From the NCBI GenBank assembly GCA_963789945.1, contig CAWBMN010000008.1, forward strand, positions 20,810-84,809: a stretch of 64,000 bases of DNA, given 5' to 3'. Position 1 is the stretch's first letter. Every line of letters starts with the position of its first letter. The stretch is from an uncultured beta proteobacterium. GTDB taxonomy: Bacteria > Pseudomonadota > Gammaproteobacteria > Burkholderiales > JACQAP01. The notes under the pieces were generated by a model. That model worked only from the letters and a program-made list of their open reading frames with translations, had not been told where the DNA came from and did no database searches. The position numbers and the translations under genes were made by a program. This document shows positions 20,810-44,940 of this stretch, in pieces.

Positions 20810-21550
20810 TTAACCCTGGATCAGCACGATGTCCCAGACGATGAGCTTGGCTTCGGACTCTTCCTTGTCGGTCGGCGGCAAGACCTTCGCGATCAGGCTG
20901 TCCTTAGCCCAGGACTGTTGCAGCAACGGGTCCTTATCGTTGAGCGCTTCTCCGGCGAAGTACATCTGCGTGATCAACCGGTTCACCTTGCCGGTGATAT
21001 CGAAGTGAACGTGGGGCGGACGCCAGTACTCGGGGACAACCGGGTACGCACCCGGCTTCACCGTCTTGAACCGGTAACGCCCTTCTGAGTCGGTGATCAC
21101 GGTGGCGTAACCGTCGAAATTGGGATCGCGAGGCGCCGGATTGCGATCATGCGGATGCGTGTAGCGGCCGGCCGCATTGGCCTGCCAGATCTCGAGCTTC
21201 ACACCGGGACAAGACTCCCCGCGAACACTCAGGACTCTTCCCATCACGTAGATGGGATTGCCGGCGGCCTTTCCGGAACGCCCCTTCAATTGCGTCAGAT
21301 CGTTGCCGCCATCGGCCGGCTTCTGGACCGGATAGAACGGTCCGAGAATCTGGTCCGGGGTCGGCATCGGTCCACGGGGGTCGAAGCCCGGTGAGTCCTG
21401 CGCTGCCGCACGCAATGGCGCGGCCAGCGTCGCGACACCGAGCGCCAGCGACATCTTCAGCAACCTGCGTCTCGATTGCAGTTCGTCGGGACAGGTGGGA
21501 AGCTGGTCGGTCGAGAAAGTCGGAACGAGAATTTTTCTTTCTTCGGTCAT
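20810..21550 (-). CDS. Intradiol ring-cleavage dioxygenase (protocatechuate 3,4-dioxygenase beta-like) with a Tat-like leader
   Basis: GPFYP, EIWQANAAGRY, KPGAYP, WRPPHVHF, LITQMYF; SRRRLLK followed by a hydrophobic stretch. Confidence 0.85.
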   Translation of the reverse strand: MTEERKILVPTFSTDQLPTCPDELQSRRRLLKMSLALGVATLAAPLRAAAQDSPGFDPRGPMPTPDQILGPFYPVQKPADGGNDLTQLKGRSGKAAGNPIYVMGRVLSVRGESCPGVKLEIWQANAAGRYTHPHDRNPAPRDPNFDGYATVITDSEGRYRFKTVKPGAYPVVPEYWRPPHVHFDITGKVNRLITQMYFAGEALNDKDPLLQQSWAKDSLIAKVLPPTDKEESEAKLIVWDIVLIQG

Positions 21551-34054: not shown

Positions 34055-36826
34055 TTACGGCTGACTCCCCCGACTCGTCTGCGGCGGTGCCCAGAAGATG
34101 ACTTCGAAGGAGTCCGCGGCCATCGCGGCGGACGCAGCTTGCGCGGTGCCAGCCACACGTATCTGCATCTCGCGTTGCTCGTCCTTGCCCGGATCGAGAT
34201 TGAACCCAACGGGAAACGGCGGCGCTGCGCGGATCTCGGGTGGCCGCGCAAAGATCTCGCGCAATTCCGCTACGCCCTCCCGGTCTCCGGCCTTCTCGTT
34301 AAGCGCCACCAGATGTTCGACCGCGCGCTTGTTTCCGAGCATCGCGGACTGCGAGTAAAACTGGAGGGCGGCCTGCTGGTTCTGCGGAACGCCTTCGCCT
34401 TTTTCGTATCTTTGCGCAAGAGCAAAGAACACGTCCGCAAGCTCTGTAGCCGCTTTCGCGTATCCCTGATCCAGGGCCGCCGACAGCCATTTCGCTGCTT
34501 CGAGGTCGTCGCGCACAACGCCGTATCCCTTGGCATGGAAAGTACCGAGCTTGTACTGCGCAGACGCAATGCCCGCCTCGGCGCCGGTGCGGTACCACGC
34601 TGCCGCACTTGAGGGTGCTGTGGGTGCACCGCGGCCTCCTTCGAAGAAGTCCTCCAGGTTGCCCTTCGCCTGCGGCACGCCGCGGCTCAGCGCCAGCAGA
34701 TACCAATCAAGCGCTTTCTTGTAATCGCGCTGTACAGCGAGGCCCCGGTCGTACATGACGCCGAGATTGTTCTGCGCCTTGCCGTTGCCCCCGTCGGCCG
34801 ACTTCTGCCACCACTGCAGCGCCTTCGCTTCGTTCTTCGGCACGCCCTGGCCTTGCGAATACATGATGCCGAGCTTGAACTGCGCCCACCGGCTCCGGTC
34901 CGCCGCCTGCTCGTAGAGTTGGGCAGCTTGCGCCGCGTCCTTCTTTCCGCCGCGGCCCTGTTCGAGCATTTCCCCGAGATCGACCATGGCCCGATAGTCG
35001 TCCTGCTTGACGCCGCGACGGTAGAGCTTGAGCGCCTCCGGATAATCCTGGGTCTTGTCGCTCAGCGAAGCGAGCCGGTACAGCGATTCGCCACCACCGC
35101 TCTCCATTGATTTGCGATACCACTTCTTAGCCTCGCCGAGATCCTGCTTGACTCCCGTCCCCTTCTCATACATCTGGGCGAGGTTCATTTGCGATATGCC
35201 GTATCCCTGCTCCGCGGCGCGCGTGTACCACTTGATCGCCTCGTCGTATTGCTTTTGCTGCTCGAATTGGAATGCGAGGTTGTGCTGGGCCTTCGCGTCG
35301 CCTTTTTCGGCCTGCGATGCCATGGTGTCCACGGGGGGAGCCGTTGAGGCGAGGTTTTTCCACATGCGATCGCTCATCGCTTTGGAGAGCGCTTTCGCCT
35401 CGGCGCTGTCTTTTTCCACGCCGACACCGCTCATCGCTTTCATCGAAACGAGCTTGATCGCCCGGCCGTCGTCGAGATCGGCCGCCTTGCGATACCAGGC
35501 CAGGGCTTCGACCTCGTTCTTCGGCGCGCCGTACCCGTATTCGCTCATTGCGCCCAGCAGCGTCATCGCTAGCGTCGAGCCTTTCGCTTCCGCAATACCC
35601 GCTTCGCGGCGCGCCTCGTCGAACTTCCCGGCGTGGGCGAGGGCACGCGCGAACTGAGCGCGATAGCGCAAGATGGACGGAAACTCCGCTACCGCCTTCC
35701 GGCAGGCGGGGATGGCCTGTTCCGCGTAGCGGCTCATGCAGTAGGCGCTTATGCCCGGCACGACTTTTCCCGGGTCGTACGCGTCCGCGGCGAACCGGTC
35801 GCAGGCATTCGCGCCCGGCTCTGCCTGCGCCGCGCGATCGCACGACTGATGCAGCCCCATCATCGCCCAGCGCCGCGATTCCGTCCGATCGCGCTCGACT
35901 CCCAGTCCGTTCTGGTAGAGCATGGCCATGCTCATCTGCGCCGGGCCGAAACCCGCTTCGGCGGCCCTGCGATACCAGGTCTGTGCCGTCGCGTAATCCT
36001 GCGGCACCCACTGCCCGGCCTCGTACAGATGGCCCACATAGTTCTGCGCCCACAATTCTCCCGCGCGGGCCAGACGCTCGTACCATGCGACCAACGCGGC
36101 CGTATCGGGCTCGACACGCCCGAGCTGCGCGATGCGCATGGGATTGCGGCGTCCTTCCGGCAGCGCTTGCGGCCGCTCACCTGCCTTTTTCCACCAGCGT
36201 TCGACCGCAGCCGGATCGGCGCCAACACCGCGCCCCCTGGCGTACGCGTCGCCCAGGATCTGCATCGCCAGCGGGTCGTAGCCCCCTGCCGCGCGGTGGA
36301 ATTGTGCGATTGCCTCAGCATCATCGGCCGCCGTCCCCCAGCCGTTGGCGACCATGACGCCCTGATTGAAAGCCGCGAGCGGATGATCCTTCTTCGCGGC
36401 GTCGCCAAAGAGCTTGAGCGCGGCACCGTAATCGCGCGCAACGCCGTTGCCGTCGGCGTACATCACGCCGAGCAGGACCATTGCCATAGACGAACCGAGC
36501 TCGGTTCCCAAGCGCGCTTCCCTCAATGCACCCACCGTATCGCCGGCGACAGCCAGCACTCGCGCATATCGCGCGTGCAGGCGAGCGGACTTGGGCTCGG
36601 TCTCCACCGCCTTGCGGCAGGCCTCGATCATCTTCGGCAGCTCCCTCGCCAGTTCATCGACCGAGTGGCCGTTTTGTTTCTCGCCCGAGCTTAAGAAATC
36701 CGCCCCGTTGAAATCGCACACCTGGACGGGAGACGGCCCGTCCGCCCGCAGCGGCGTGCAAACCGCCGCCAGTGCCGCGAGCAGGCGGGCCATTGCAATG
36801 ATTGTTCTCACGAAAGATATGGTCAT
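34055..36826 (-). CDS. Large Sel1-like repeat protein
   Basis: Many AQxxLGxMYxxGxGVxxD..A..WY units; two ACRKAV modules; start uncertain. Confidence 0.88.
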   Translation of the reverse strand: MTISFVRTIIAMARLLAALAAVCTPLRADGPSPVQVCDFNGADFLSSGEKQNGHSVDELARELPKMIEACRKAVETEPKSARLHARYARVLAVAGDTVGALREARLGTELGSSMAMVLLGVMYADGNGVARDYGAALKLFGDAAKKDHPLAAFNQGVMVANGWGTAADDAEAIAQFHRAAGGYDPLAMQILGDAYARGRGVGADPAAVERWWKKAGERPQALPEGRRNPMRIAQLGRVEPDTAALVAWYERLARAGELWAQNYVGHLYEAGQWVPQDYATAQTWYRRAAEAGFGPAQMSMAMLYQNGLGVERDRTESRRWAMMGLHQSCDRAAQAEPGANACDRFAADAYDPGKVVPGISAYCMSRYAEQAIPACRKAVAEFPSILRYRAQFARALAHAGKFDEARREAGIAEAKGSTLAMTLLGAMSEYGYGAPKNEVEALAWYRKAADLDDGRAIKLVSMKAMSGVGVEKDSAEAKALSKAMSDRMWKNLASTAPPVDTMASQAEKGDAKAQHNLAFQFEQQKQYDEAIKWYTRAAEQGYGISQMNLAQMYEKGTGVKQDLGEAKKWYRKSMESGGGESLYRLASLSDKTQDYPEALKLYRRGVKQDDYRAMVDLGEMLEQGRGGKKDAAQAAQLYEQAADRSRWAQFKLGIMYSQGQGVPKNEAKALQWWQKSADGGNGKAQNNLGVMYDRGLAVQRDYKKALDWYLLALSRGVPQAKGNLEDFFEGGRGAPTAPSSAAAWYRTGAEAGIASAQYKLGTFHAKGYGVVRDDLEAAKWLSAALDQGYAKAATELADVFFALAQRYEKGEGVPQNQQAALQFYSQSAMLGNKRAVEHLVALNEKAGDREGVAELREIFARPPEIRAAPPFPVGFNLDPGKDEQREMQIRVAGTAQAASAAMAADSFEVIFWAPPQTSRGSQP

Positions 36827-37000
36827 CTCGGTTGGGACTGGGAAGGTTTGCGACAGCATATCCCTTCCGAATTGGCATGGGGGTGCCCCGGTCCCGGCGC
36901 GCGTTCCCGATGAGAGAGCCCGCGCCAATTCACATAGACGCAGCCGAAGTCAGCTTGGTCTGAGTTGTCTCGTTGCTCGCGTTCCTTCTCGCGCGCCAGA

Positions 37001-38697: not shown

Positions 38698-38920
38698 TTG
38701 CGTTTAGTGCCGCATCTACCCGCAGGAGCATTCACATGAACCGTAGCGATTGCCTTGAGAAAGGCGCGTCCGGCACTTGGAAGTTGAATCCACCAACCTC
38801 CACACGTCATCGAGATCCTGTTGATCGGGAGCGACACATTTTTGCGCTACGATCCCTGTGCGAGGAAAGTACAATCGTTCTGCCGATCCAGAATGGATTC
38901 GACCTTTATTGGAGAAATGC

Positions 38921-39682
38921 ATGAATAGAATCTGCTTATCTTTGCTAGCCGCGTTTCTGGCAACCGCCAGCCTCTCTGAACACGCATTGAGTCAGGATTC
39001 GATGGCGCTTGCGAACGCTGTCGTCGCGGCGGCGGATCGCAGCCCTGAGGATCGCGCGCTCGACGCCGGCCGCAAACCGGCCGAACTGCTCGCCTTCCTG
39101 GGCGTACAGCCGGGCTGGCGTATCGCCGACCTGGGTGCCGGCGGCGGCTATACGACCGAGTTACTCAAGCGGGCGGTAGGCAGCGACGGCGCCGTCTACG
39201 GACAGAACTCCAAGAAGTTGCTGGAGATGTTCCTGGAAAAGCCCTGGAGCGCGCGGCTCTCAAAGCCGGCAATGAAGGGTGTCGTGCGTCTGGATCGCGA
39301 TTTCGACGATCCCTTCCCGGGCGACATGCGTCCGCTCGACGCGGTCACGATGGTGCTGTTTTATCACGACACAGTCTGGCTCGGGGTGAATCGCGAGGCC
39401 ATGAACAAGGCCGTGTTCACCGCACTTAAGCCGGGCGGTGTATTCGTGATTGTCGATCACAGCGCGCGGCCGGGGGACGGTGTCGATGTGGCCAATACGT
39501 TTCATCGGATTGACGAGAATATCGTCAAATCGGAAATACAGGCAGCGGGGTTCGTGCTCGATGGCCAAGCCGATTTTCTCCGCAACAAGGACGACACCCG
39601 GGATTGGAACGATTCGCCGCGCGCCGCTGGCGAACGCCGTGGCACCAGCGATCGGTTCGTTCTGCGCTTCCGGAAGCCCTGA
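38921..39682 (+). CDS. Predicted secreted SAM-dependent methyltransferase (COG4798-like)
   Basis: Signal peptide; RKPAELLAF, DLGAGGGYTT, YHD, LKPGG, HRID, DRFVLRFRKP. Confidence 0.85.
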   Translation: MNRICLSLLAAFLATASLSEHALSQDSMALANAVVAAADRSPEDRALDAGRKPAELLAFLGVQPGWRIADLGAGGGYTTELLKRAVGSDGAVYGQNSKKLLEMFLEKPWSARLSKPAMKGVVRLDRDFDDPFPGDMRPLDAVTMVLFYHDTVWLGVNREAMNKAVFTALKPGGVFVIVDHSARPGDGVDVANTFHRIDENIVKSEIQAAGFVLDGQADFLRNKDDTRDWNDSPRAAGERRGTSDRFVLRFRKP

Positions 39683-39717
39683 CCATTGGCTTCTTCAAAA
39701 TGTTGGAATGAGCTGGA

Positions 39718-40197
39718 ATGAGTGAGATCACGCTGGTGTCCATTGTTGCGGCGTTGGCGTTGGCAACCGCGTCCGGAGGTTGTCTGGCGAATGACTCGAC
39801 GACACAGAAGGATGAGACCACACAGGTCGGGGCGACGAAGCCGGACGGTCCAGCGGTTTGGCCCCGTACCCGATTTTTTGCAAGCGAACTCCGGGGATTG
39901 CAGCTGGGAGATTTACAGGTGGAAGCCCATTTCTGCGGTTGCAACGACAAACCCAACAAACACTTCCCGTATTCCCTCGTCTTGCTGAAAACTTCGAAGG
40001 GAGACCTGGTTGCAAGGCCTGAGCGTCTGGAAGGGGCAGTGACCTACACGCCATTGGCGGTCAGGCGCGGAAATGAATACTGCGAACTCGAGTCGGAAAC
40101 GCAATGTCACGGCTCGTTCCCGGACCCGTGCGATTTCACCGACTATATGTACGGGCCCCATCTGGCACCGTTCTTCCCTACGTGCAAAGACGGATGA
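39718..40197 (+). CDS. Hypothetical Cys-rich exported protein
   Basis: Signal-like N-terminus; HFCGC and C-terminal cysteines; no recognised domain. Confidence 0.6.
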   Translation: MSEITLVSIVAALALATASGGCLANDSTTQKDETTQVGATKPDGPAVWPRTRFFASELRGLQLGDLQVEAHFCGCNDKPNKHFPYSLVLLKTSKGDLVARPERLEGAVTYTPLAVRRGNEYCELESETQCHGSFPDPCDFTDYMYGPHLAPFFPTCKDG

Positions 40198-40219: not shown

Positions 40220-41452
40220 CTAAAAGGAATACGGCAGGTTCAGCGACAACGTGAGATCCGGGCTGTCGCCGCCGACACCCATCGCGACCGCGGGCTCCAT
40301 GAACAGACCGCGCGCGAGCATCCAGGTCATGCCGAATTGCAGCTGGTAGCGCTCGCGCGGCGGCGGAATCGAAACGCCATCCGGCGAAACCGTGTTCCGA
40401 TAGGTACCGACGAAAAGCGTACTGACAGCGAGGACGTCGTTGAGCGCGTACGTATAACCGAGACTGAAGCCGAAGTTGTTCTTGGCGAGGGATCGCTGCG
40501 AATCCGCCGGATCGATCTCCAGCCCATACAAGTAGCTGAATCCGGCAAAAATCACCGCGGGATCGTAACTCTTGGAAAACACCAAACCCCCGCCCACTCC
40601 TTGGTCGCCCGGCCCGGTAGGCAACACCACGTCCAGGCTCCAGATGATGTTGGGTCGACCTGCCGCTTCCCGCGAGGCAACGCCGAGCAATGAAAGGGAT
40701 GCGTCCCCGATGTAGTCATCGCGGGTGACGAGCGCCGAGGTTGTGCCGCTTATCGTGGCGTCGGTATAGGTCGTGTCGCGGCGCGATACCCCGGGCACTC
40801 GCGCCGTGATTTGCAGGTCGTTGAGCAAACCATAGCGCAACGCGGCGTTGGCGCCGACCGCACGCTGCTCCTGCCGAATGACCGGGAACAACGTCTGCTC
40901 GCTGTAGGAATAGAAGACGCCAAAGTCGACGGTCGCTGCGCCCCGCTTGAGGAGTACGCTTTGATCGCGCAAGGCGATTTCCTCGGCTGTGGGCGTCGTG
41001 GGGCGCTCGCCAACGGTGGGCGGCGGACTGCTTGCCGGAGGTTTTGTATCCGGCGCGGCTTGCGAAAGGCGCGTCGAGGATTCCGGCGCCGCGCCTCTCG
41101 CGCGCAACGCGGGTAGTTCCCCGGCAAGCGCTTCCGCTGGATCGAGATTGCTCGATGGCGCCGGCACTATGCGCGGCGCGCCGGTAAACTGTGCGTCCTT
41201 CAACCATTCGAGCAACGCGGCGCGCGAAAAGCGCCACGTATCGCCGACGCGACGAGCCGGGATGCGGTGCGCTTCGGCCAGTTCGCGAACCACCTCGGGC
41301 CGTACCCGCAACAGCAACGCGGCTTCGTCGAGATCCAGCACCTCCAGGCTCGGGCTGGCGTCGGCGGCCACACAAGACGACGCGACCGGCAACGTACTCA
41401 AGAAAACCAGCGCGACGAGCGCGAGCAGCCGATGGAGAGTGGAGCAGGCCAA
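40220..41452 (-). CDS. FapF/MetA-pathway-like outer-membrane barrel with an N-terminal excisionase-type HTH
   Basis: Signal peptide; LDLDEAALLLRV....IPARRVGDTWRFSRAALLEWL; Pro-rich linker; LRYGL, GD.SL, PTG, KSYDPAVIF; C-terminal LPYSF beta-signal. Confidence 0.75.
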   Translation of the reverse strand: MACSTLHRLLALVALVFLSTLPVASSCVAADASPSLEVLDLDEAALLLRVRPEVVRELAEAHRIPARRVGDTWRFSRAALLEWLKDAQFTGAPRIVPAPSSNLDPAEALAGELPALRARGAAPESSTRLSQAAPDTKPPASSPPPTVGERPTTPTAEEIALRDQSVLLKRGAATVDFGVFYSYSEQTLFPVIRQEQRAVGANAALRYGLLNDLQITARVPGVSRRDTTYTDATISGTTSALVTRDDYIGDASLSLLGVASREAAGRPNIIWSLDVVLPTGPGDQGVGGGLVFSKSYDPAVIFAGFSYLYGLEIDPADSQRSLAKNNFGFSLGYTYALNDVLAVSTLFVGTYRNTVSPDGVSIPPPRERYQLQFGMTWMLARGLFMEPAVAMGVGGDSPDLTLSLNLPYSF

Positions 41453-41456
41453 AGCG

Positions 41457-42296
41457 TTACCTGTTCGGGAAGAGCAAGGGAATCGGCTTGCCGATCTCCA
41501 TCAAGCGCTCCGCGCTCAGCACTTCCAGCGGAGTGTCGGGCCCGCCGGCGAGCCGCAAAGCGTAGCGCTCCGGCCAGTCGCCCGCGGCTCTCTCCACCGC
41601 AAAGACCACGCCGCGACCGGACTCGTCGGACCACATATCGAGGAAGCGATAGAGCGGCATGCGCACATTTCCGAGCGAAGGGTCGGCGAGATGCACGCGA
41701 TCGCCCCGCAGGCCCTTCAACACCGCAAAGTGCTCGTAGCCGTGGGGCTTGATGAACACGATCACCGGCCGTGACAGCTTGGCAAGCTGAGACCGATGAA
41801 CGCGGAACCCCTGCGCCTTGTGGCCGCGTTTTTGCGCGAGTTGCTGCAGATCGAACAGCGACAGCCCTTTTTTCTGAAGCGCAATGAGCTCTTCGGGCGA
41901 GAGCGGCTCGAGCAACGCGCGCAATAGCACGTCCTCGTCGACCGGATCGTTCAGTCCATAGGTCAGCAGGGTCGCGAGCGCTGCCGAACCGCAGGAATAG
42001 TCGTAACGTTGCTTCACGACGCCCGCATCGCGTAGCGCGCGCAGGGACCTGACGTTGAACTCAGTCCTGGCAGCGCCGGCCTTGACGACGACTTGCGCGT
42101 CCGGGCACCCGCCGCCGCCGTGCTCTGCGGCCGCACATGAACCGACACCGGCCCGAGGGGAATCGTCCTGCGGCGCTTGGGCCCATGTGCCCGAGGCCAG
42201 CGTCGCAGCGAATAACACCGCGAACGTTCGCACGCCCGCGACGCGGACCGCTTGGGCGCGACCGGTTTTCCAGGAAGGCTCGACTGCGTTCGACAT
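41457..42296 (-). CDS. Stand-alone C39 family peptidase (FapD-like)
   Basis: VVKQRYDYSCGSAALATLL, GLSLFDL, HFAVLKG..ADPSLGN (Cys-His-Asp triad); signal-like segment ending TWA. Confidence 0.88.
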   Translation of the reverse strand: MSNAVEPSWKTGRAQAVRVAGVRTFAVLFAATLASGTWAQAPQDDSPRAGVGSCAAAEHGGGGCPDAQVVVKAGAARTEFNVRSLRALRDAGVVKQRYDYSCGSAALATLLTYGLNDPVDEDVLLRALLEPLSPEELIALQKKGLSLFDLQQLAQKRGHKAQGFRVHRSQLAKLSRPVIVFIKPHGYEHFAVLKGLRGDRVHLADPSLGNVRMPLYRFLDMWSDESGRGVVFAVERAAGDWPERYALRLAGGPDTPLEVLSAERLMEIGKPIPLLFPNR

Positions 42297-42412
42297 GGGC
42301 GAAATAACACTACCACATCGCCAAGCGCTTACGGATTCACCTCGCGCTGCATGCGGACGTGAAAACGGCCCCTTGTCGGGGCCGTCTTGGATCTTGAGCC
42401 GATGTGAAAAGA

Positions 42413-42781
42413 TTAGCAGGGGTTCGTGCCTGTGCCCCCGCCGACGCACGTGTAGAGGCCACGTTTGACGAATGCTGCGTTGATGGCTTCGGCGTTCGTC
42501 TGGTAATAAAGCGCCAGCCTTGTCGTCGCGGCCGCCAATCTCGTGCGACCGGCCTCGGTCAGCGCGGCAGCGGTGTCGAACAGTGCCGCTGCGATGTTGT
42601 ACGCGTTCAGCTCGCCGGAAATCGCGTCCATATCCTGGGACGACAACGCCTGTGCTTCAACGCCTTGCAGCGCCGAAAAACCGCTGTCGTCCTGCGATTC
42701 GGCAAACGCCGGGGTCAACAATAGCGAGCCGCTGAGAACTGCGGCGGCAAACAGTGACGCTAAGGCTCTGATTTGTTTCAT
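42413..42781 (-). CDS. Small secreted protein with a double-glycine-like leader (candidate C39 substrate)
   Basis: GAGGAG RBS; Sec signal ending AFA; ALSSQDMDAISG motif; Ala-rich body; C-terminal C-x9-C. Confidence 0.72.
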   Translation of the reverse strand: MKQIRALASLFAAAVLSGSLLLTPAFAESQDDSGFSALQGVEAQALSSQDMDAISGELNAYNIAAALFDTAAALTEAGRTRLAAATTRLALYYQTNAEAINAAFVKRGLYTCVGGGTGTNPC

Positions 42782-43251: not shown

Positions 43252-43418
43252 TCGAACCTGGACCGGCGGATTGTGGACCGGGGTCTGCGTGAACTGGGTC
43301 CTATGCATGCAACACCAAGCCAGACCACCCTTTCGTCTTTGTATTGGCGGTGCGTCGGCAAAGAACGCCGGATTCTGCGTCAAGTCCGCGATCCGGCTCG
43401 CGCGCAAAATTCGCCTCC

Positions 43419-44735
43419 ATGAACACGACCTCTTTGGCCCTCGATCACCTCCTGCGCGCCGTGGGCGATCCGGTCGCCGAGCTACGCGACATCGGTCTCG
43501 GTCATCCGGAGTTCGATCGAGCACAGACGATCCGGGCCGCAGCCGGCGTCCTCGCGAAAACCCCGGATACCTTTCCCGCAATCGCACAGGCGATCCGGGC
43601 GGTCGATGAGCTTGCGGCATCGCCACGAACACGCGCCCACCTTGCCGCGGCCAAAGCGTGGCTGTCCGGGAACCCGGTCCTCGCCGCTGAAAGTTATGCC
43701 TTCATCCTGGGCCGGTGGCCTCGGGATTTGCTGGCGCTGCGGCTCGCGCTGTCGTGCTACTTCTACCTGGGCTGGCATGAGCAGCTTTGCGCGCTCGTCG
43801 ATGCAGTAATCCCGGCGTGGAGGCGCGATCAGCGCGATTTCGGATTCGTGCTTGCCATGGCGTCGTTCGCGCACGCTGAAACCGGCGACGGAGCGCGCGC
43901 CGAGGCACTGGGGCGGGAAGCGCTGGCGGACGACCCTGCCTGCCCGTTGGGTGTGCACGCGGTCGCGCACGCGTTTGCCGGGTCCGGGCGGCACCGCGAC
44001 GGCGCGCAATGGATGCGCGATCAGCGTGGCCACTGGGCCACGCAGAGCCGCATGTGCACTCACAACGCATGGCATCTCGCCATGTTCGACGCCGAGGCGG
44101 GAAACGTTGCGTCGGCGCTGGGCATACTCGACACCTGGTTGCTTCCCGCCAGCGCGGGATCGGCACCCGATGCGTGCGACGCCGCTGCGCTGTTATGGCG
44201 CCTCGCGACCGACGGGGTGGACGTCGAAGGCCGCTGGCGCAAGGTTTCCGACGCCTTCGAACGGACAATGACCCCGGGTTTCTGGCCCTATATCGACCTT
44301 CATGCGGCTCTCGCACACTTCAGTGCCGGGCAAAGGGCGCGGGCGCAACGTCTGGTACATGAGATCGAGCGCTGTGCGGGAGGCAGCGACTACTCGGCGC
44401 TGCGGGCGCGGCACGTCACCCGGCCGGGTCTGCGTGCGCTCGGCGCCTGGAGCGAAGGCCGTTATGGCGAGGCAGCGGAGTTACTTGCAGGCCTGCAACC
44501 GGTTCTCGGCGACGTTGGCGGAAGCCGCGTCCAGCTCGAAGTCTTCAAGTGGATCGAGCACGAGGCCGTCCGTCGGCAGCACGCCGAGCAATGCCAGCAA
44601 CCTCGACCCCCAGCAGCAAAGGAGCAAGCCCTGCCCCGGATCAAAGGTGCTTTCTTCGAGCCGCAGAAAAAACGGATTGCCTCAAGCTCCGCGTTCACCA
44701 CCCGGCGCACAACCCCAATAGCCGTGGAGAGTTAG
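43419..44735 (+). CDS. TPR protein, TTC38-like
   Basis: WPRDLLAL, GVHAVAH, HNAWHLA, DAAALLWRL, GGSRVQ. Confidence 0.75.
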   Translation: MNTTSLALDHLLRAVGDPVAELRDIGLGHPEFDRAQTIRAAAGVLAKTPDTFPAIAQAIRAVDELAASPRTRAHLAAAKAWLSGNPVLAAESYAFILGRWPRDLLALRLALSCYFYLGWHEQLCALVDAVIPAWRRDQRDFGFVLAMASFAHAETGDGARAEALGREALADDPACPLGVHAVAHAFAGSGRHRDGAQWMRDQRGHWATQSRMCTHNAWHLAMFDAEAGNVASALGILDTWLLPASAGSAPDACDAAALLWRLATDGVDVEGRWRKVSDAFERTMTPGFWPYIDLHAALAHFSAGQRARAQRLVHEIERCAGGSDYSALRARHVTRPGLRALGAWSEGRYGEAAELLAGLQPVLGDVGGSRVQLEVFKWIEHEAVRRQHAEQCQQPRPPAAKEQALPRIKGAFFEPQKKRIASSSAFTTRRTTPIAVES

Positions 44736-44940
44736 GGAAGCTCTGACCAAGTTCCACATGCGCGACCGAGGCGATTCGGGTCGAGGGCAAGACGGCGAGG
44801 ACGCCGTGTAGCCGGACGGCTGTGACTCGTTAGCGGTACGCCCGTTTGCGGGAGCAGCCGTATAAGCGCTCCGTTTATTTTGGTCAACACAGCCTCCATG
44901 CGCTCCTACCCGCCCCGATGCTACGCTCGCCGAGTCCGGA

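Follow-up and report, generated by a model that had tools for sequence, protein, structure and literature searches.

A three-gene C39 peptidase and FapF-like barrel cassette with a leader-bearing, non-amyloid small protein in an uncultured beta proteobacterium

Introduction

What leaves the cell through a stand-alone C39 peptidase and a FapF-like outer-membrane barrel when the only small protein encoded beside them does not look like an amyloid subunit? This question is raised by a three-gene cassette on contig CAWBMN010000008.1 (assembly GCA_963789945.1) of an uncultured beta proteobacterium, of which we analysed a stretch of 64,000 nucleotides (positions 20,810 to 84,809 of the forward strand; hereafter the window). 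A first-pass annotation of the window had described the cassette as a minimal Fap-like export module and proposed that it exports a different product in two steps. In this study, barrel grouping, synteny and a docking model supported that proposal. We lean, at slightly better than even confidence, towards a self-contained, horizontally scattered two-step cassette that most probably releases a diffusible peptide, either bacteriocin-like or surface-active.

The idea of a non-amyloid cargo for a C39/FapF-like pair has already been published for the Nap system (PMC11798529), and it is implied by the NCBIfam FilB and FilC models. What is new here is a clade of barrels with an HTH_17 domain, a family of precursors with a Sec signal plus a leader and one invariant Gly, and the minimal three-gene form. 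A literature search of limited coverage found no report on a FapF-like barrel bearing a helix-turn-helix (HTH) domain or on this leader.

Results

A conserved leader precedes variable cargo

The first gene of the cassette encodes a 122-aa protein (Table 1), in which the first-pass annotation had read a Sec signal, a leader of the LSxxELxxIxG type and a C-x9-C end; all three are visible in the translation. The signal peptide ends in AFA, followed by ES and then ...ALSSQDMDAISGE..., and the C-terminal part after the leader is Ala-rich. The leader motif was F35-S-A-L-Q-G40 ... L46-S-x-x-D/E-M51-x-A-I54-x-G56, and the own leader reads F-S-A-L-Q-G, then L-S-S-Q-D-M-D-A-I-S-G-E. We found 46 homologous clusters of the precursor at E up to 0.01. 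In the alignment, conservation peaked at residues 35-63 and not in the helical body, and the invariant positions included F35, L38, G40, Q44, I54 and G56.

A profile of the leader alone was then searched against 1.84 billion representatives, and 84 proteins matched at E up to 0.001, 12 of them at 1e-10 or below. Almost all of them (80/84) were 34-180 aa long and matched near residues 20-60, and many matches stopped at the invariant Gly. The other four were long repeat proteins, which we took as spurious. For the cargo, statistics were made on the 61 of 85 sequences that fit the strict motif (24 were left out). The part past the invariant Gly had a median length of 51 aa (range 7-131). Of the 60 cargos with more than 9 residues, 51 had a net charge of +1 to +6. 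In addition, 12/61 family members had at least two Cys in the cargo. The cargos shared little sequence, ranging from Trp-rich 15-mers up to the 131-residue Q/N/W-rich tail of one member (P0235). Because the conserved leader precedes such divergent cargos, including a longer protein encoded next to a distant HTH-barrel/C39 pair of G296, an unpublished genome, it behaves as a portable tag. No curated leader family in Pfam or NCBIfam matched at E up to 0.1.

The claim of a double-glycine leader stood only in part: the leader motif is conserved, but only one Gly is. Double-glycine leaders have GG, GA or GS at the cleavage site and hydrophobic residues at -4, -7 and -12. In the 61 sequences, the residue after the invariant Gly was Q in 20, E in 18, A in 10, R in 5, K in 3, and L, F, M, G and T in one each. 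Thus, with a single conserved Gly and a variable next residue, the putative cleavage site does not look like a canonical GG/GA/GS and its register is ambiguous. If G56 is set at -2, then I54, M51 and L46 fall at -4, -7 and -12, and the next residue here is E; this canonical spacing would put the cut after E57, whereas a next residue as variable as this one is in line with a cut immediately behind G56.

The annotation had further described the substrate as helical-looking and not amyloid, which agrees with the AlphaFold2 (AF2) model, a helical hairpin with helices at 48-58, 60-76 and 80-106 (predicted local distance difference test, pLDDT, 88-97 at residues 61-100). The small protein had no match in Pfam, and none to FilA, FapB/C/E or pilin models at E up to 0.1. 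One NCBIfam match to Btc22 (E 0.042) was at chance level and was rejected. A fold search against 48,161 PDB chains yielded nothing beyond generic helical hairpins, with Z no higher than 7.8, which is in the common range. In the ESM Atlas, only unnamed 'hypothetical protein' clusters were found (top score 0.90), which are probably its own family.

The peptidase and its predicted complex with the leader

The second gene encodes a stand-alone C39 peptidase, as had been annotated, with its catalytic residues intact. Pfam Peptidase_C39 (PF03412) matched at E 4.3e-18, with 65.9 bits against a cut-off of 22, which reaches the gathering score, and Q147, C153, H240 and D256 were invariant in 18/18 aligned homologues. 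Residue numbers of the peptidase follow the 330-aa frame, which is open from a GTG at 42449. The terminator-like hairpin described below lies inside this extension, and the sole other in-frame start is the ATG at 42296; this ATG, not the GTG, is likely to be the real start. Among curated models, the nearest were FapD (NF058616), which matched at E 2.2e-27 with 95.8 bits against a cut-off of 330, below the equivalog threshold, and FilB (NF050078), at E 7.3e-27 with 94.4 bits, below its threshold of 475. The peptidase also matched PDB 6mpz (E 1.3e-06).

We modelled residues 120-330 of the peptidase together with residues 28-122 of the precursor, a structure prediction that the first-pass annotation had suggested. 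The interface score (ipSAE) was 0.74, and the best of three controls gave 0.02; in a benchmark, 58/80 solved complexes and 2/110 mismatched pairs reach the mark used. The runs shared at least 63% of contacts, with a partner pLDDT of at least 64. The predicted interface comprised residues 34-46, 48 and 51-58 of the precursor, and residues 152-154 (with the catalytic Cys), 238-241 (with the His) and the strand 213-218 of the peptidase. Thus, the model places the conserved leader on the catalytic Cys/His of the C39 peptidase. However, complexes of C39 with leaders have already been solved, so this result may reflect likeness only.

The barrel belongs to the FapF superfamily and carries an HTH_17 domain

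The third gene had been annotated as a FapF-like barrel ending in LPYSF, and sequence, fold and tree agreed on this grouping at the level of the superfamily. By sequence, the barrel matched FapF in NCBIfam (E 1.3e-17) and PDB 5o65 (E 1.4e-14). In a Foldseek search with the barrel model, the ten best matches were all FapF chains (best 5o65_B, E 5.3e-16, TMt 0.68, 23% identity over 296 columns). In the AF2 model, residues 173-409 include 13 strand elements, of which two are probably parts of a single broken strand, and a short conserved helix (157-165) comes just ahead of the first of them. However, the FapF model NF058560 gave only 63.7 bits against a cut-off of 700 and matched only residues 277-410 plus a weak second stretch, whereas a genuine FapF from the same class (L085) scored 766.5 bits. 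The FilC model NF050079 was also below threshold (E 2.3e-07, 30.5 bits, cut-off 630). Judged by its sequence, the barrel is a member of the FapF superfamily and not a FapF in the curated sense.

The annotation of the barrel had missed a domain at residues 38-85 that is predicted to be periplasmic. This is an HTH_17 domain (PF12728, E 1.7e-11, 44.6 bits against a cut-off of 27; TIGR01764, E 3e-09, 37.1 bits against 28.8). At residues 41-87, AF2 predicted helix-helix-hairpin-helix with pLDDT of about 80-88, a winged-helix fold with no long helix. Because the domain comes behind a signal peptide, DNA binding is not implied. FapF homologues are all said to carry a periplasmic coiled coil (PMC6173795), and N-termini that look like coiled coils by eye were present in the FapF-type barrels of other genomes. 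We built a barrel-only tree from the last 275 residues of 25 chosen rows (L074, L075 and L076 are from unpublished genomes). The 13 HTH-bearing barrels were split from the 12 coiled-coil or other FapF-type barrels with support of 98/98. The tree includes a bona fide FapF (L085) and is without FilC or NapF, because no FapF, FilC or NapF was found in the 14 named control genomes. Taken at the level of sequence, HTH_17 replaces the coiled coil in a separate clade of barrels.

This barrel family had at least 180 matching clusters, and PF12728 was recorded for 107 of the 120 listed. The JGI name of 50 of these 120 listed homologues was 'excisionase family DNA binding protein', and the others were unnamed or 'hypothetical protein'. 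An excisionase-type HTH behind a signal peptide on an outer-membrane barrel is an unusual re-use of a domain, and it has also led to a systematic annotation error.

The three genes occur together and are scattered

We scanned metagenome contigs and obtained 63 loci with the small gene (near-duplicates were kept in the counts). The C39 gene followed on the same strand in 34/38 loci with at least 600 nt past the last copy of the small gene, so that homologous loci do keep the small gene directly upstream of the peptidase. Both C39 and barrel were present in 17/18 loci with at least 2200 nt. The three-gene order recurred in dozens of loci at 48-83% protein identity, and two precursor copies in tandem were seen in 6/63 loci. 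Beyond the three genes, no conserved neighbour was found in these loci; one cytochrome-c-like neighbour recurred in 7 related loci only. The labels of the metagenome runs were mostly 'soil metagenome', and each holder run contained less than 1/3 of the sampled words.

The barrel was not found in 9/9 genomes of the same genus (95-100% complete) and was present in 2/400 other genomes sampled from the order. Among 400 other genomes sampled from the class, a near-full-length match that included the HTH was found only in G296 (E 2.5e-49), and the matches in the 32 remaining genomes were partial, covering either the barrel part without the HTH or the HTH alone. Furthermore, the DNA of the cassette was not found in 5/5 same-genus genomes, in which the flanking genes are present at 70-87% identity. 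Because these genomes arrange the flanking genes differently, they did not reveal a clean empty site. The cassette is sporadic and presumably moves horizontally. Around it, we saw no integrase, tRNA or terminal repeats marking an insertion. No tRNA lies at 25-55 kb, no direct or inverted repeats worth noting flank the cassette, and its GC content was not distinct. In its own genome, which is 91% complete, there was a single C39 match and a single leader-bearing gene; one further leader match (E 0.0043) lay within a 628-aa open frame.

Several related loci had other arrangements. In L051 and L052, an intact precursor and hairpin were followed only by a piece that matched barrel residues 338-384, which looks like a deletion remnant. 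In L003, from a metagenome-assembled genome labelled Acidobacteria, C39 and HTH-barrel genes form an otherwise similar pair, with a single in-frame stop interrupting the C39 gene (5177-5872); a search ahead of it revealed no small precursor gene. The copy could be decaying, the stop could be a sequencing error, or the contig could be mis-binned. L101 (G443:C8:37500-45000) holds a distant C39/HTH-barrel pair, with a barrel 25-29% identical, directly downstream of genes for a large beta-helical protein of the two-partner-secretion type and an FhaC-like transporter (by eye). An 85-aa ORF with a Sec signal and a leader-like E-G site lies farther upstream in L101, and this arrangement as a whole hints that the pair can serve other cargo. 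In L102 and L103 (unpublished genomes G039 and G308), small Sec-signal proteins, about 100-110 aa long, are encoded upstream of C39 genes with coiled-coil FapF-like barrels. They have a GG-like site and tails rich in Gly, Cys, Ala and Thr, and would be another cargo type of the same platform.

A hairpin lies behind the precursor gene

About 27 nt past the precursor stop, there is a GC-rich hairpin followed by UUUUC. Its centroid structure has an energy of -20.7 kcal/mol (z -3.15). The terminator scan demands a run of five T and so passed over it; the hairpin was spotted by eye and then folded. The element ACGGCCCC-loop-GGGGCCGU-UUUC was present in 29/50 distinct downstream tails from metagenomes, and in some copies stem letters were changed with the pairing kept. 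The hairpin is likely to be a partial terminator that keeps the precursor mRNA in excess. A promoter scan of the locus returned 0 promoter-like sites.

Contigs from RNA libraries touched all three genes; this is a hint only, as DNA carry-over is possible and strand and level are not given. In X18, 289 nt with 0 mismatches lay within the barrel gene. X20 had two contigs, about 90-96% identical to the locus, which lay over the junction of C39 and barrel and over the 5' part of C39, and X19, whose status as RNA is a guess, had 239 nt with 1 mismatch over the small gene.

Genome context

The open reading frames (ORFs) and translations agreed with the three co-oriented genes and coordinates of the first-pass annotation. 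The barrel gene starts 4 nt past the C39 stop, and plus-strand genes at 39718-40197 and 43344-44735 bracket the minus-strand cassette on either side. As the annotation had said, no ATP-binding cassette (ABC) transporter is encoded nearby: among 10 neighbouring ORFs scanned at 34-47 kb, there were a Sel1-repeat protein, a PhoX-like protein, a methyltransferase, a DUF4440 protein and unknowns.

Some of these neighbours have features of their own. The gene at 34055-36928 (minus strand), 3 kb away from the cassette, encodes a secreted-looking protein of 957 aa made nearly all of Sel1/TPR repeats (Pfam Sel1 E 1.2e-82, 11 stretches), and it is not conserved with the cassette. Two genes follow one another at 38858-40197 (plus strand): the first encodes a methyltransferase-like protein with an N-terminal signal peptide, and the second a Cys-rich protein of 159 aa whose N-terminus resembles that of a lipoprotein. 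Same-genus genomes without the cassette have both genes too. Just downstream of a 463-aa gene, at 44815-44860, lies a sequence of about 30-45 nt that has copies, 82-100% identical and on either strand, on many contigs of four same-genus genomes; it looks like a dispersed repeat of the repetitive extragenic palindromic type.

Table 1. Features of the cassette in the window
Feature	Position	Strand	Description
Three-gene cassette	40220-42781	-	122-aa precursor, C39 peptidase and 410-aa barrel; all co-oriented
Precursor gene	42413-42781	-	122 aa, from ORF translation; ATG 8 nt behind GAGGAG
Precursor domains			Sec signal 1-27; leader 28-56/57; predicted helical-hairpin cargo ~57/58-122, ending in C-x9-C
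Leader-coding part	42611-42700	-	Residues 28-57; best-conserved stretch of the precursor
Terminator-like hairpin and U-run	42361-42388	-	Between precursor and C39 genes; 11-bp centroid stem
C39 peptidase gene	41457-42296	-	279 aa from ATG at 42296 (likely start); own Sec signal (...TWAQA/PQ)
Outer-membrane barrel gene	40220-41452	-	410 aa; FapF superfamily; C-terminus LPYSF
Barrel protein parts			Signal peptide; HTH_17 38-85; disordered Pro/Ala-rich linker 88-154; conserved short helix 157-165; beta-barrel 173-410
Excisionase-type winged HTH (HTH_17)	41198-41341	-	Barrel residues 38-85; predicted periplasmic

Discussion

We propose the following route for the product of this cassette. First, the 122-aa precursor would cross the inner membrane via Sec and lose its signal peptide; the peptidase and the barrel would likewise be exported by Sec, as their signal peptides suggest. 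Second, the leader of about 30 residues may dock on the periplasmic C39, as in the complex model, and the precursor would then be cut beside the invariant Gly; the canonical double-glycine register would place this cut after E57, and the alternative is a cut after G56. Cleavage by C39 is proposed because of the analogy to FapD, in which the catalytic Cys is needed for secretion. Third, the helical hairpin of about 65 residues would exit via the barrel, for which homology to FapF has been shown and transport is assumed by analogy to Fap. Meanwhile, the hairpin behind the first gene probably ensures that more precursor is made than machinery.

The role of the product is the weakest part of this interpretation. 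We favour a diffusible bacteriocin-like or surface-active peptide because the leader is conserved, the cargo is short, diversifying, cationic and helical, precursors occur as tandem paralogues and orphan copies, and the distribution is patchy. Nevertheless, several results weigh against this view. The own cargo is near-neutral (about +1, counted from the translation) and not strongly cationic, and only one Gly is conserved at the site, with ten different residues next to it (Q/E/A/R/K/L/F/M/G/T). In four of the 38 loci (L028, L038, L051 and L052), no C39 follows the small gene; in L028, it is an orphan beside cytochrome oxidase genes. In addition, no conserved immunity-like gene goes with the cassette in the loci surveyed, which is unusual for a self-toxic bacteriocin. 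Furthermore, the barrel and C39 models have moderate confidence only (mean pLDDT 70), and the export scheme does not account for the HTH_17 domain.

A fibre or matrix role stays alive because of the missing immunity gene, the near-neutral own cargo and the fibre-building Fap and Fil systems. In this rival explanation, the machinery is the same and the product is structural: its helical hairpins would assemble at the cell surface and so build a fibre or a matrix layer. Those relatives that build something make fibres, namely Fap amyloid and Fil fimbriae, and in NCBIfam, FilB is called a 'pilus system C39 family peptidase' and FilC a 'pilus system protein'; the two models match here. However, the small protein itself has no FilA, FapB/C/E or pilin match and only generic hairpins in the fold search, and there is no minor-subunit, nucleator or chaperone gene at the locus. 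An attenuator behind the structural gene, as here, is typical of pilin operons; a C-terminal disulfide loop is predicted in 28/36 aligned family members; and the same leader precedes the 131-residue Q/N/W-rich cargo of P0235, which would suit a structural product. Nevertheless, even close relatives differ greatly in their cargo, and many cargos have only 15-50 aa, which fits diversifying peptides better than a self-assembling subunit. On balance, we think a fibre unlikely, and we keep it as the chief rival of the bacteriocin-like peptide.

Another explanation, which we hold to be quite improbable, is that the small protein is a processed accessory of the pore (a FapE-like initiator, a plug or a regulator) that is activated by C39, and that the real substrate is elsewhere or absent. 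In the Fap system, the minor component FapE was the sole protein with clear N-terminal processing, and FapD may cut FapF too (PMC5557850). Within the close family, moreover, the residues after the Gly (E-L-N-A-x-D-I-A-A) are conserved, which is unexpected at a pure boundary of leader and cargo. In the wider family, however, everything past the Gly diverges, tandem precursor paralogues and orphan copies are typical of cargo, and the own genome, as far as its 91% completeness goes, holds no other leader-bearing gene except the match in the 628-aa frame. That the cassette is a functionless, decaying remnant of a larger Fap/Fil-type operon is very improbable: the barrel is missing from the same-genus genomes examined and remnants exist elsewhere (L051/L052, and the stop in the C39 of L003), but all three frames are intact here, the catalytic residues are invariant, dozens of loci keep the same gene order, and RNA-library contigs, weak evidence given possible DNA carry-over, lie over all three genes.

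Returning to the secreted-peptide view, we can add a guess on the HTH_17 domain, which could be a docking site for the F-S-A-L-Q-G block or for the conserved C-terminal tail of the peptidase. In a joint reading, which we offer as possible yet rather doubtful, the locus would be the type locus of a widespread, unannotated soil system. A Sec signal plus a leader would tag hypervariable cationic helical peptides for a periplasmic C39, and the pore would be of the FapF superfamily, with the coiled coil swapped for an excisionase fold reused in the periplasm as a docking site for leader or peptidase. If true, this would be an ABC-independent route for bacteriocin-like peptides of Gram-negative bacteria.

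More generally, a periplasmic C39 with a FapF-like barrel would be a general platform for two-step export with exchangeable cargo, and not a speciality of amyloid. To Fap amyloid and Nap peptides, this locus would add a third class of cargo with its own recognisable leader. With a short precursor, one invariant Gly and a confident docking model, the leader could be a clean model for the substrate rule of FapD-type peptidases. In addition, the hypervariable cationic cargo could be mined for antimicrobial or surface-active peptides from soil.

Comparison with known systems

The Fap system of Pseudomonas also has a Sec-exported C39 peptidase (FapD) with intact Cys/His beside a barrel of the same fold (FapF). 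FapF is a trimeric 12-stranded barrel (PDB 5o65), and its plug is at the position where the barrel studied here has the conserved short helix before the first strand. FapD is located in the periplasm, and secretion depends on its catalytic Cys (PMC5557850). In contrast to Fap, the locus has three genes only: those for FapA/B/C/E and for amyloid subunits with N/Q repeats are absent, and the small protein is Ala-rich and helical, with no match to Fap models. Furthermore, FapF has an N-terminal periplasmic coiled coil with Q-layers, whereas this barrel has HTH_17.

The Neisseria nap island encodes NapP (C39), NapF (a FapF homologue) and the GG-motif peptides NapA-C (PLoS Biol 2025, PMC11798529). 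Like the cassette, it has a stand-alone C39 and a FapF-like channel. The pair is proposed to process and export small cationic, bacteriocin-like, non-amyloid peptides, and the island was acquired horizontally; the likeness to the cassette is one of architecture only, by description. The island additionally has a regulator, a holin-like gene and an immunity-like gene. In the Nap model, the pre-peptides are cytoplasmic and the holin-like protein may carry them over the inner membrane, whereas the precursors here have a clear Sec signal. In the passages considered here, no HTH domain is mentioned for NapF.

In the Fil system of Acinetobacter, a C39 (FilB) is likewise paired with an outer-membrane protein related to FapF (FilC), and the small protein studied here has no FilA-like match. 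The fil operon is larger and runs from filA to filF. Its fimbriae are long and curved, and both fimbriae and monomeric FilA were reported (PMC3498257).

Finally, the C39-ABC exporters, which cut class II leaders and are represented by PCAT1 and LahT (PDB 4ry2, 6mpz), have the C39 fold and the catalytic residues in common with the peptidase studied here. They also share an amphipathic helical leader with hydrophobic spacing, and a conserved leader in front of variable cationic cargo. In those exporters, the peptidase is fused to a cytoplasmic ABC transporter, whereas here it is free and predicted to be periplasmic. The class II leader consensus is L-S-x-x-E-L-x-x-I-x-G-G. The precursors here differ in that a Sec signal stands ahead of the leader, a single Gly is conserved and a dedicated outer-membrane barrel is present; in addition, they have an extra conserved F-S-A-L-Q-G block upstream, which contacts the peptidase in the model.

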